From Melioribacteraceae bacterium (GTDB lineage Bacteria; Bacteroidota; Ignavibacteria; Ignavibacteriales; Melioribacteraceae), in contig CAXXJE010000002.1 of the NCBI GenBank assembly GCA_963675055.2, positions 456,483-480,482 on the forward strand: 24,000 nucleotides of DNA. The letters are read 5' to 3'. A program made the position numbers and the translations under genes. Positions 15,675 through 16,826 of the stretch are shown one piece after another. The notes beneath the pieces are model-generated. The model was not told where the DNA came from. It did no database searches and worked only from the letters and a program-made list of their open reading frames with translations. Within the stretch, counting starts at the first letter, position 1; each line of letters begins with the position of its first letter.

Positions 15675-16826
15675 ATGAAGCATTCCATTACGCTTCGCAA
15701 CAGACACGGAGGCGGTGAATATAAACAGGCATTGAATGAAACTGAAATGCCTGATATTCCTTCTATTGACTGGGATAAAATCGGAAGAAAGAGACCCGAG
15801 TGGGTATCTGACAAACAGTGGGACTCGGATAAAAACGAAACCAATGTAGATATCGTGATAATAACCTGGACTTCAGCAGAATGGGCATCATTTAACCATG
15901 TATTCTGTGACAGTGGTGCAGACATGCCGTACAAATATTACGAAGCAGAGAAGGAATGGCGTGAGTACTGGAAATATTACCATAACAACTGGGATAAGAT
16001 TAAGTCCGAGCTTACCGACAAGTCCCCGTCATTATCACACGAGGCTTGGGGAAGCTGTAGGGTAGTAAAACTTCCATCGAATGATAAAAATGTTCTGCTG
16101 TTCAAATCAGATATGCATGTAAGTACCGACGGAAAGGATCTTCCGTTAAGAAGTATGCTTCAGCAGATTATTGATGATTTTAACCCTCGGTTTATTTTCA
16201 CGATTGGCACAGCAGGCGGTTCACGTATTGAAGACAACCTGGGTACAGTTAATGTAACAAATTGCGCGCATTTCGATTTGACAGGTGAGTTTACCGGTTG
16301 TCACTACCCTTTCAATAATAAAACTTACTGTAATTCATGGGAACCGGTTAAAGAATTGTTTGACAAAATAAGCAGTTCACTCATGGAGACTCCGGTAACA
16401 AAACATGATCTGGAAATGCTCAGGAACAAAAATGCGGAAAAACTTATTGACCCGGAAACCGGCAAGACATATGAACTAAGCAAGCTGGCAAACAGTCAAA
16501 TTGAACCGGGCAAAATACCACCAATAATGAATGTACTTGATAACACACCCGTGCTTACAACCAACGGATACGTTGTTGGAAATACCAGCGGTAATTATAA
16601 AGATTATGCTGCAATGGAAATGGATGATGCTGTAATCGGTTTAATCGCTGATAAGAATTCGATACTATTCGGTATTGTCAGAAACATATCCGATCCGGTT
16701 CAAAACGCTTCGCTGGCATCTGAAGTGCAGGGTCAATGGGGAGGAATAATTTACAGTGAGTACGGGCTGTATACCAGTTACAACGGCGCCCTGGTAACAT
16801 GGGCCTTAGTGGACGCAATGAAATAG
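15675..16826 (+). CDS. Nucleoside phosphorylase / nucleosidase-superfamily (PNP_UDP_1-like) protein with an N-terminal extension
   Basis: 383 aa with a strong AAGGAGG box. Motif order matches the MTAN/PNP fold: VDIVIITWTSAEW (beta1), FIFTIGTAGGS (Gly-rich loop), GTVNVTNCAHFD, PVLTTNGYVVGN, AAMEMDDAVIGLIA and FGIVRNISDP (RxISD-type end). No signal peptide. Confidence 0.6.
   Translation: MKHSITLRNRHGGGEYKQALNETEMPDIPSIDWDKIGRKRPEWVSDKQWDSDKNETNVDIVIITWTSAEWASFNHVFCDSGADMPYKYYEAEKEWREYWKYYHNNWDKIKSELTDKSPSLSHEAWGSCRVVKLPSNDKNVLLFKSDMHVSTDGKDLPLRSMLQQIIDDFNPRFIFTIGTAGGSRIEDNLGTVNVTNCAHFDLTGEFTGCHYPFNNKTYCNSWEPVKELFDKISSSLMETPVTKHDLEMLRNKNAEKLIDPETGKTYELSKLANSQIEPGKIPPIMNVLDNTPVLTTNGYVVGNTSGNYKDYAAMEMDDAVIGLIADKNSILFGIVRNISDPVQNASLASEVQGQWGGIIYSEYGLYTSYNGALVTWALVDAMK

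Follow-up and report, generated by a model that had tools for sequence, protein, structure and literature searches.

The gene at positions 15675 to 16826 of the 24,000-nucleotide stretch of Melioribacteraceae DNA analysed here (the window) encodes an MTAN-like nucleosidase. It is located directly behind a cassette of R-body (reb) genes and is probably a resident enzyme whose function is independent of R-bodies. The family to which it belongs is widespread and is found adjacent to reb genes in one lineage only, so that an ordinary neighbour of reb, rather than the missing R-body toxin, is the most likely description of the gene. A preliminary description of this DNA had proposed a functional tie to the Reb ribbon, as toxin, cargo or maturation enzyme, with the fallback that the gene might be an operon passenger only. 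It is the fallback that the comparative evidence favours, and a functional tie to R-bodies appears to be lacking. The features concerned are the following.

14090 to 14097, + strand: candidate promoter of the reb unit, TATTTTTG, an exact match to the Bacteroidota -7 consensus TAnnTTTG

14119 (alternatively 14095) to 14343, 14381 to 14623, 14651 to 14875 and 14908 to 15345, + strand: four RebB-domain genes (Pfam RebB), the R-body structural cassette

15362 to 15619, + strand: Lys-rich open reading frame of 85 amino acids with an acidic C-terminal tail, the last gene of the reb cassette, conserved in position

15620 to 15674, + strand: spacer of 55 nt between the small Lys-rich open reading frame, which ends at 15619, and the nucleosidase gene

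15662 to 15669, + strand: Shine-Dalgarno sequence AAGGAGGT, 5 nt before the ATG of the nucleosidase gene

15675 to 16826, + strand: gene of a putative MTAN-like (PNP_UDP_1 superfamily) N-ribosyl hydrolase of an extended subfamily, 383 amino acids, assigned by open reading frame, fold and conserved residues

16882 to 16925, + strand: hairpin with a 16-bp stem, 56 nt past the stop codon (dG -21.7 kcal/mol, z -5.7)

The open reading frame of 383 codons is real, and every motif quoted from it in the preliminary description is present. Its product is a single-domain protein, for which an AF2 model built from 47 homologues reached a pLDDT of 91 and a pTM of 0.91. Foldseek comparison of this model with the PDB returned 662 matches at E<=0.001, the best with E=3.6e-11 and probability 1.00. 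The best 50 of these 662 are all MTAN, MqnB or hexameric PNP structures, with TM on target of 0.52-0.70; nearly all of the top matches are MTA/SAH nucleosidases, with futalosine hydrolases and hexameric PNPs ranking next. Among viral structures, Foldseek recovered giant-virus nucleoside phosphorylases only, with no phage link. The lone protein remains below threshold against Pfam PNP_UDP_1 (PF01048; E=0.13, 12.1 bits versus a cut-off of 25.1), while 42 of 47 family members match PF01048 individually (E<=0.01; best 5.7e-13). The family profile identified E. coli MtnN/MTAN in the PDB at E=1.6e-8, and hhalign aligned it with E. coli MtnN at 97.4% probability over residues 132-342. By model, Foldseek and family profile, the placement of the protein in the PNP_UDP_1 superfamily, MTAN-like branch, is secured, and the fold assignment made earlier from the letters alone was right.

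The closest enzymes are MtnN and MqnB. With MtnN/Pfs of E. coli (PDB 1JYS/1NC1/1Z5N), which provides the best Foldseek matches, the protein has in common the alpha/beta fold, a GxxGG-type loop (GTAGG, where MtnN has GSAGG), the E-M-[ED] motif and the R-x-I-S-D motif with the catalytic Asp. It differs from MtnN in its length of 383 amino acids versus about 230, owing to an N-terminal extension of about 55 amino acids and an insertion of about 75 (residues 215-290), in the replacement of Glu174 by Asp and of Ser76 by Thr, and in several additional invariant Trp and His residues. Scores against the NCBIfam MtnN equivalogs are far below the cut-offs (best 20-22 bits versus 161-260). By score, as well as by its conserved extension and insertion where MtnN is a compact protein of about 230 amino acids, the enzyme does not class as a canonical MtnN/Pfs. 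The futalosine/aminodeoxyfutalosine hydrolase MqnB (H. pylori, PDB 4BMX-4BMZ), an MTAN-fold enzyme that accommodates a larger 5' substituent, is also among the top structural matches. Its profile match, however, is weaker (E ~0.07), and neither mqn genes nor any conserved neighbour were noticed in the listed neighbourhoods.

In MtnN, Asp197 acts as the general acid and Glu12 activates the attacking water. Alignments place Ser76 of MtnN at T179 of the protein, E172-M173-E174 at E315-M316-D317, R193 at R336, S196 at S339 and the catalytic D197 at D340, the last three within the motif R336-N-I-S339-D340. Across 117 full-length homologues of 35-100% identity, the mapped catalytic residues are invariant in 117 of 117, save E315 (115/117) and M316 (116/117). 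A check for catalytic Asp and Glu had been proposed in the preliminary description; it found D340, D317 and the rest of the MTAN set conserved. E69 is likewise invariant in the 117 homologues and is located just after strand beta-1 of the AF2 model (strand 60-64, helix 67-77). The hhalign alignment with MtnN stops short of this region, and in a colinear alignment E69 corresponds to the equivalent Glu of Cap17. By this and by manual alignment, E69 would be the counterpart of MtnN Glu12. Further invariant residues are W65, W99, W125, K144, S145, H148, D318, N337 and W355. The whole family shares, in conserved form, the N-terminal extension (consensus PxLPxIDWxxIGxxAP) and the 215-290 insertion; residues 1-25 alone are variable, and residues 1-13 are predicted to be disordered. 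Both had been pointed out in the preliminary description as features of this gene product. They are indeed present, but they are not special to this copy. Since the extension is conserved across the whole family, its interpretation as an R-body targeting signal was rejected.

Because the MTAN-type catalytic set is conserved, the protein is read as an active N-ribosyl hydrolase, probably working by the MTAN mechanism. The class of substrate and the choice of hydrolysis over phosphorolysis are inferred. It is unlikely, though worth weighing, that the fold supports another chemistry, the enzyme being a phosphorylase, a hydrolase of a non-nucleoside N- or O-ribosyl substrate, or a replacement of MtnN in the recycling of SAM by-products. 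Such a reading would account for an MtnN equivalog score of 20 bits versus a cut-off of 169 and for the invariant W65, W99, W125, H148, D318, N337 and W355, which are outside the known MTAN catalytic set, and Tat signals on a few members suggest extracytoplasmic substrates in some lineages. It is opposed by the full conservation of the MTAN catalytic set in an alignment that spans both halves of the active site, and by the lack of any sign, at the level of sequence, of phosphate-binding Arg residues.

Nucleosidases of this superfamily also serve in bacterial immunity, and the preliminary description had drawn an analogy with these immune ATP nucleosidases. The PNP domains of Cap17 (CBASS) and DtcC (Detocs) form a distinct clade, occur in fusion or in an operon with sensor modules, and are the only PNP clade enriched near defence systems (bioRxiv 10.1101/2023.01.24.525353). 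The protein described here resembles them in the PNP_UDP_1 superfamily fold and, as far as alignment can tell, in an Asp-dependent N-glycosidase active site. Unlike them, it has no fused sensor and no partner genes, and its family profile aligns with the DtcC PNP domain (sequence from the supplement of bioRxiv 10.1101/2023.01.24.525353) at 0.3% (E=0.22) and with the N-terminal half of the Cap17 PNP domain at 18%, a weak match, versus 97.4% for MtnN. PADLOC gave no hit on the enzyme and its neighbours even at E<=1, and neither a fused SLOG/TPALS, receiver or NLR sensor nor a conserved partner gene was found at 85 loci. The analogy accordingly fails on the DtcC alignment, on PADLOC and on the sensor partner, and membership of the Cap17/DtcC immune clade is not supported by the sequence comparisons. 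That the enzyme acts on its own, with no relation to R-bodies, as an anti-phage or abortive-infection effector like the ATP nucleosidases Cap17 and DtcC is barely credible: the common fold, the conserved catalytic Asp and NACHT/TPR or nSTAND genes within some loci (L086 and L090, for example) are compatible with it, whereas the alignments, the PADLOC result, the missing sensor and partner, the restriction of near-defence enrichment to the Cap17 clade (bioRxiv 10.1101/2023.01.24.525353) and the nature of the window, which is not a defence island, all speak against it. The window is an ordinary piece of chromosome, with genes for CheA/MCP, aminotransferases, EamA, exonuclease III, a thioesterase, a beta-lactamase-like protein and GH97. 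The GC profile around the reb and nucleosidase genes is flat (0.34-0.42), and with composition so uniform a foreign-DNA signature at this site was rejected.

The arrangement of the nucleosidase gene behind reb is compatible with co-transcription. The spacer of 55 nt folds weakly (z -2.35); a terminator scan of the + strand from the reb genes to the nucleosidase gene found no terminator-like site, in agreement with the earlier statement that the gene follows its predecessor after 55 nt with no terminator between. An exact Bacteroidota -7 box is absent from the + strand of this spacer. One such box, TATTTTTG, is located 21 nt upstream of the probable reb1 start. The motif TAnnTTTG is not enriched in the window (23 matches versus 25.7 expected), and its candidacy as a promoter is therefore supported by position alone. 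With this box before reb1 and none in the spacer, read-through from the reb promoter into the nucleosidase gene, ending at the hairpin of 16882-16925, would be plausible. The hairpin had been noted in the preliminary description and is real: none of 200 shuffles was equally stable, and the terminator scan passed over it, its loop being 12 nt long and its T tract weak. It is probably the transcript end in this strain. Neither the hairpin nor, apart from GGAG, much of the spacer is conserved in the closest relative, L001 (77% identity). The window and five orthologue loci were also compared with Rfam, in case a riboswitch pointed to the ligand, and nothing was found.

The gene had also been credited with the strongest ribosome-binding site in the window, and this holds: with -12.6 kcal/mol for the duplex with the anti-SD, its Shine-Dalgarno sequence ranks first among the 25 window genes surveyed, followed by the first three reb genes, most of the remaining genes having little or none. 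As a sign of membership in the reb operon, however, the strong Shine-Dalgarno sequence was rejected. It is not specific to reb linkage, because the orthologue at L004, which is not linked to reb, carries TAGGAGGA (-10.2 kcal/mol); four other orthologues have none.

The limits of the reb cassette were defined by comparison with cassettes of the same type elsewhere, which were found through homologues of the long RebB paralogue (14908-15345). In the window, the four open reading frames upstream are true RebB-domain genes (Pfam RebB E 8e-8 to 1e-27), the first of which probably starts at ATG 14119 (MAYPTPVN...), in agreement with its paralogues and with the 74-aa orthologue at L001. Each of six independent reb loci (L087-L092) has a single long RebB gene together with one, two or three short ones. 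Five of these loci (L087-L091) carry a small open reading frame of 81-130 amino acids behind the long RebB, and three of these frames are weakly similar to the 85-aa Lys-rich protein (E 0.02-0.07); none was called in L092. The next gene differs from locus to locus: an unknown 163-aa protein with a hydrolase, an opposite-strand cytochrome, an FG-GAP/T9SS protein, DUF433, an AraC regulator and a methylmalonyl-CoA mutase. A PNP-like HMM matched nothing in these six loci, nor in the 19 additional reb loci that a metagenome scan supplied (L093-L111), of which 10 have at least 2.9 kb past the last reb gene and one or two duplicate earlier loci. About 14 independent reb clusters of this type extend far enough downstream to be informative, and the nucleosidase gene is present in none of them. 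Since the next gene differs from locus to locus and a PNP-like gene occurs in none of these reb loci, the conserved reb module, as judged by these sequence comparisons, ends at 15619 and leaves the nucleosidase gene outside.

The converse comparison began from the nucleosidase. The family comprises 676 clusters at E<=1e-3, and 141 confirmed hits were obtained in reference genomes sampled at one per species, distributed amongst Acidobacteriota, Acetobacteraceae, Bacteroidota, Gemmatimonadota, Gammaproteobacteria, Verrucomicrobiota and others. Some genomes contain two family copies, and Tat signals occur on a few members. Co-occurrence with RebB, a check named in the preliminary description, was examined by six-frame translation of 80 reference loci together with the context loci and an HMM built from the four Reb proteins of the window. 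RebB was found in 0 of 84 non-syntenic homologue loci within the fetched flanks of up to 10 kb, so that among these loci the homologues never neighbour reb genes. A relaxed search of the homologue loci (E<=10, --max) returned noise only. Reb genes near homologues are confined to the window and to three contigs (L001-L003) of a relative with 77% identity, which is fully syntenic and has the same reb-nucleosidase arrangement. The closest non-syntenic relatives (L004 66%, L085 63%, L086 62%, L005 59%, L006 59% and L007 56%) have no reb genes in their flanks. Nor did clustering of open reading frames within 5 kb on either side at 85 homologue loci disclose a conserved partner gene: only alternative-frame shadow open reading frames clustered, and real families (LysR, exonuclease III and others) never reached more than 7 loci. 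The NJ tree places the two reb-linked proteins as a terminal pair inside a Bacteroidota clade, the other members of which (Roseivirga, Cyclobacteriaceae and metagenomic relatives) are all unlinked to reb. As the linked pair is nested within an unlinked clade of this tree, the adjacency to reb is recent and derived.

The functional tie to the Reb ribbon is thus left unsupported from both sides, with no RebB at any of the 84 homologue loci and no nucleosidase in the 6 and 19 reb loci. Like the accessory genes of reb loci (RebC, 'secondary' Reb proteins and the synteny partners of groups 1 and 2), the nucleosidase gene is on the same strand and directly after the cassette. Unlike them, it is not homologous to any Reb protein (the protein has no match to Pfam RebB, PF11747), is not conserved with reb cassettes, and is not reported as a partner in genomic surveys (PMC3583457, PMC13430693). 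A 2026 survey regards co-localised non-Reb genes as hard to interpret without conserved synteny (PMC13430693), and conserved synteny with reb is, on the loci compared, what this gene lacks. The literature searched contained no paper pairing 'R-body' with 'nucleosidase'.

There is a slim chance that the gene is nevertheless a lineage-specific R-body partner, a nucleosidase recruited as a toxin or cargo that is freed on unrolling, or as a self-intoxication factor of R-body producers, and that would act on the target by breaking down one of its adenine nucleotides or nucleosides. The plausible co-transcription (a same-strand spacer of 55 nt in which neither a terminator nor a separate promoter can be recognised, and a hairpin only past the gene), the retention of the arrangement in the 77% relative, and a Shine-Dalgarno sequence that is unusually strong for the genome, as in the reb genes, are all in its favour. 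In addition, PNP-fold domains can be toxic ATP nucleosidases (bioRxiv 10.1101/2023.01.24.525353). The preliminary description was also correct that the toxin of R-body killing is undefined; species-specific toxins have been proposed (PMC3583457), and because the toxin may be species-specific, a local toxin role would be compatible with poor conservation. These points are outweighed by the restriction of the linkage to one shallow lineage, with absence from 84 homologue loci and about 14 informative reb loci, and by the reb-linked copies themselves, which have no distinguishing feature: invariant residues, extension and insertion are common to the unlinked orthologues, and no signal peptide or targeting region is evident. 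Moreover, the family resembles housekeeping MtnN more than it does the immune clade, and hundreds of genomes would have difficulty in maintaining a constitutive toxin as an isolated gene, with neither an immunity partner nor a sensor. The narrower version, in which a housekeeping-type MTAN-like nucleosidase was captured by the reb operon and now serves as the species-specific R-body toxin or cargo of this genus, has a slimmer chance still.

For the preferred reading, a resident nucleosidase beside the reb cassette, the following mechanism may be proposed. The product would be a cytoplasmic N-ribosyl hydrolase belonging to an extended subfamily within the MtnN-like branch, in which Asp340 (Asp197 of MtnN) would protonate the leaving purine, Asp317 (Glu174) together with Met316 would hold the ribose, and Arg336 (Arg193) and Glu69 (Glu12) would position and activate the attacking water, a phosphate site being unnecessary. 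The N-terminal extension, the 215-290 insertion and several invariant Trp and His residues probably give the pocket a different shape around the 5' substituent. A likely substrate is accordingly some purine nucleoside derivative, taken either instead of MTA/SAH or besides it. The gene would be a resident of Bacteroidota genomes that, in one lineage, has a five-gene reb cassette (four RebB paralogues and the Lys-rich protein) directly upstream; it may be read through from the reb promoter while its function is independent of R-bodies.

If true, the effector idea would provide the first molecular candidate for the toxin of R-body killing, an issue of several decades' standing. The evidence for an incidental neighbour saves the experimental effort that such a candidate would attract. 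The boundary of the Bacteroidota-type reb cassette (2-3 short RebBs, one long RebB and the small Lys-rich protein) defines the cloning unit for these R-bodies. Finally, the nucleosidase is one of a large, phylum-spanning and entirely uncharacterised group of extended MTAN-like enzymes; their active site is conserved in full, and their substrate is worth finding.

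The first gene of the reb cassette, reb1, was assigned a TTG start at 14095 by mechanical ORF calling; this start is probably wrong, and ATG 14119 is the likelier one. Read from ATG 14119, the product begins MAYPTPVN..., in parallel with its paralogues in the window and with the 74-aa orthologue in L001, the syntenic 77% relative. An exact Bacteroidota -7 box lies near this start:
14090-14097, TATTTTTG, -7 box

A survey of all gene starts in the window showed that Shine-Dalgarno (SD) usage is highly unequal. The genes reb1-3 and the nucleosidase gene possess strong SDs (-8 to -12.6 kcal/mol), and SDs are nearly absent from most other genes in the window, as is typical of Bacteroidota. 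The strong SDs of the reb genes could reflect high expression of the cassette or its foreign origin.

Gene content differs between the window and L001. The window lacks the DAO-type FAD oxidoreductase and the 344-aa gene that L001 carries in the interval from the PGAP1-like hydrolase gene to that for exonuclease III. After the beta-lactamase-like gene it carries a GH97 glycosidase; at the corresponding position L001 contains an ORF of 152 aa together with a radical-SAM gene. An IS256-type element with imperfect terminal inverted repeats of 23 nt sits in the window within a gene for an EamA-family transporter, which it breaks near residue 168; both halves of this gene share 68-69% identity with the uninterrupted L001 orthologue (303 aa).
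Window 12496-12648 versus L001 4082-6699, PGAP1-like hydrolase/exonuclease III interval
Window 18462-20405 versus L001 12821-14804, GH97 region
Window 7724-10006, interrupted EamA gene region
Window roughly 8232-9588, IS256-type element
Window 8271-9494, - strand, transposase (Pfam Transposase_mut, E=1e-29)

A few homologues of the window nucleosidase (P0086, P0095 and P0120) bear a twin-arginine (Tat) signal peptide ahead of the conserved N-terminal extension, which implies that some lineages possess periplasmic versions of this extended MTAN-like enzyme. Two divergent paralogues are encountered in single genomes of Roseivirga sp. OFTM338 (L006/L030), where they fall into separate clades of the family tree, and of a Lichenicoccus MAG (L036/L063). 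In the neighbour-joining tree, the Bacteroidota clade also includes a homologue with 56% identity from a gammaproteobacterial Porticoccaceae MAG (L007), nested among its members, which suggests horizontal transfer or a binning error.

As in the window, the long RebB gene is followed by a small Lys-rich ORF in five of the six independent reb cassettes of the window type (L087-L091), and none was called at this position in L092. The ORFs lie at:
Window 15362-15619
L087 8467-8733
L088 5630-5920
L089 5565-5822
L090 8463-8708
L091 8385-8777
Its product matched no Pfam family; the C-terminus is helical and acidic, several copies ending in ...Y[ES]E. As an R-body accessory factor, this small ORF is a better candidate than the nucleosidase.
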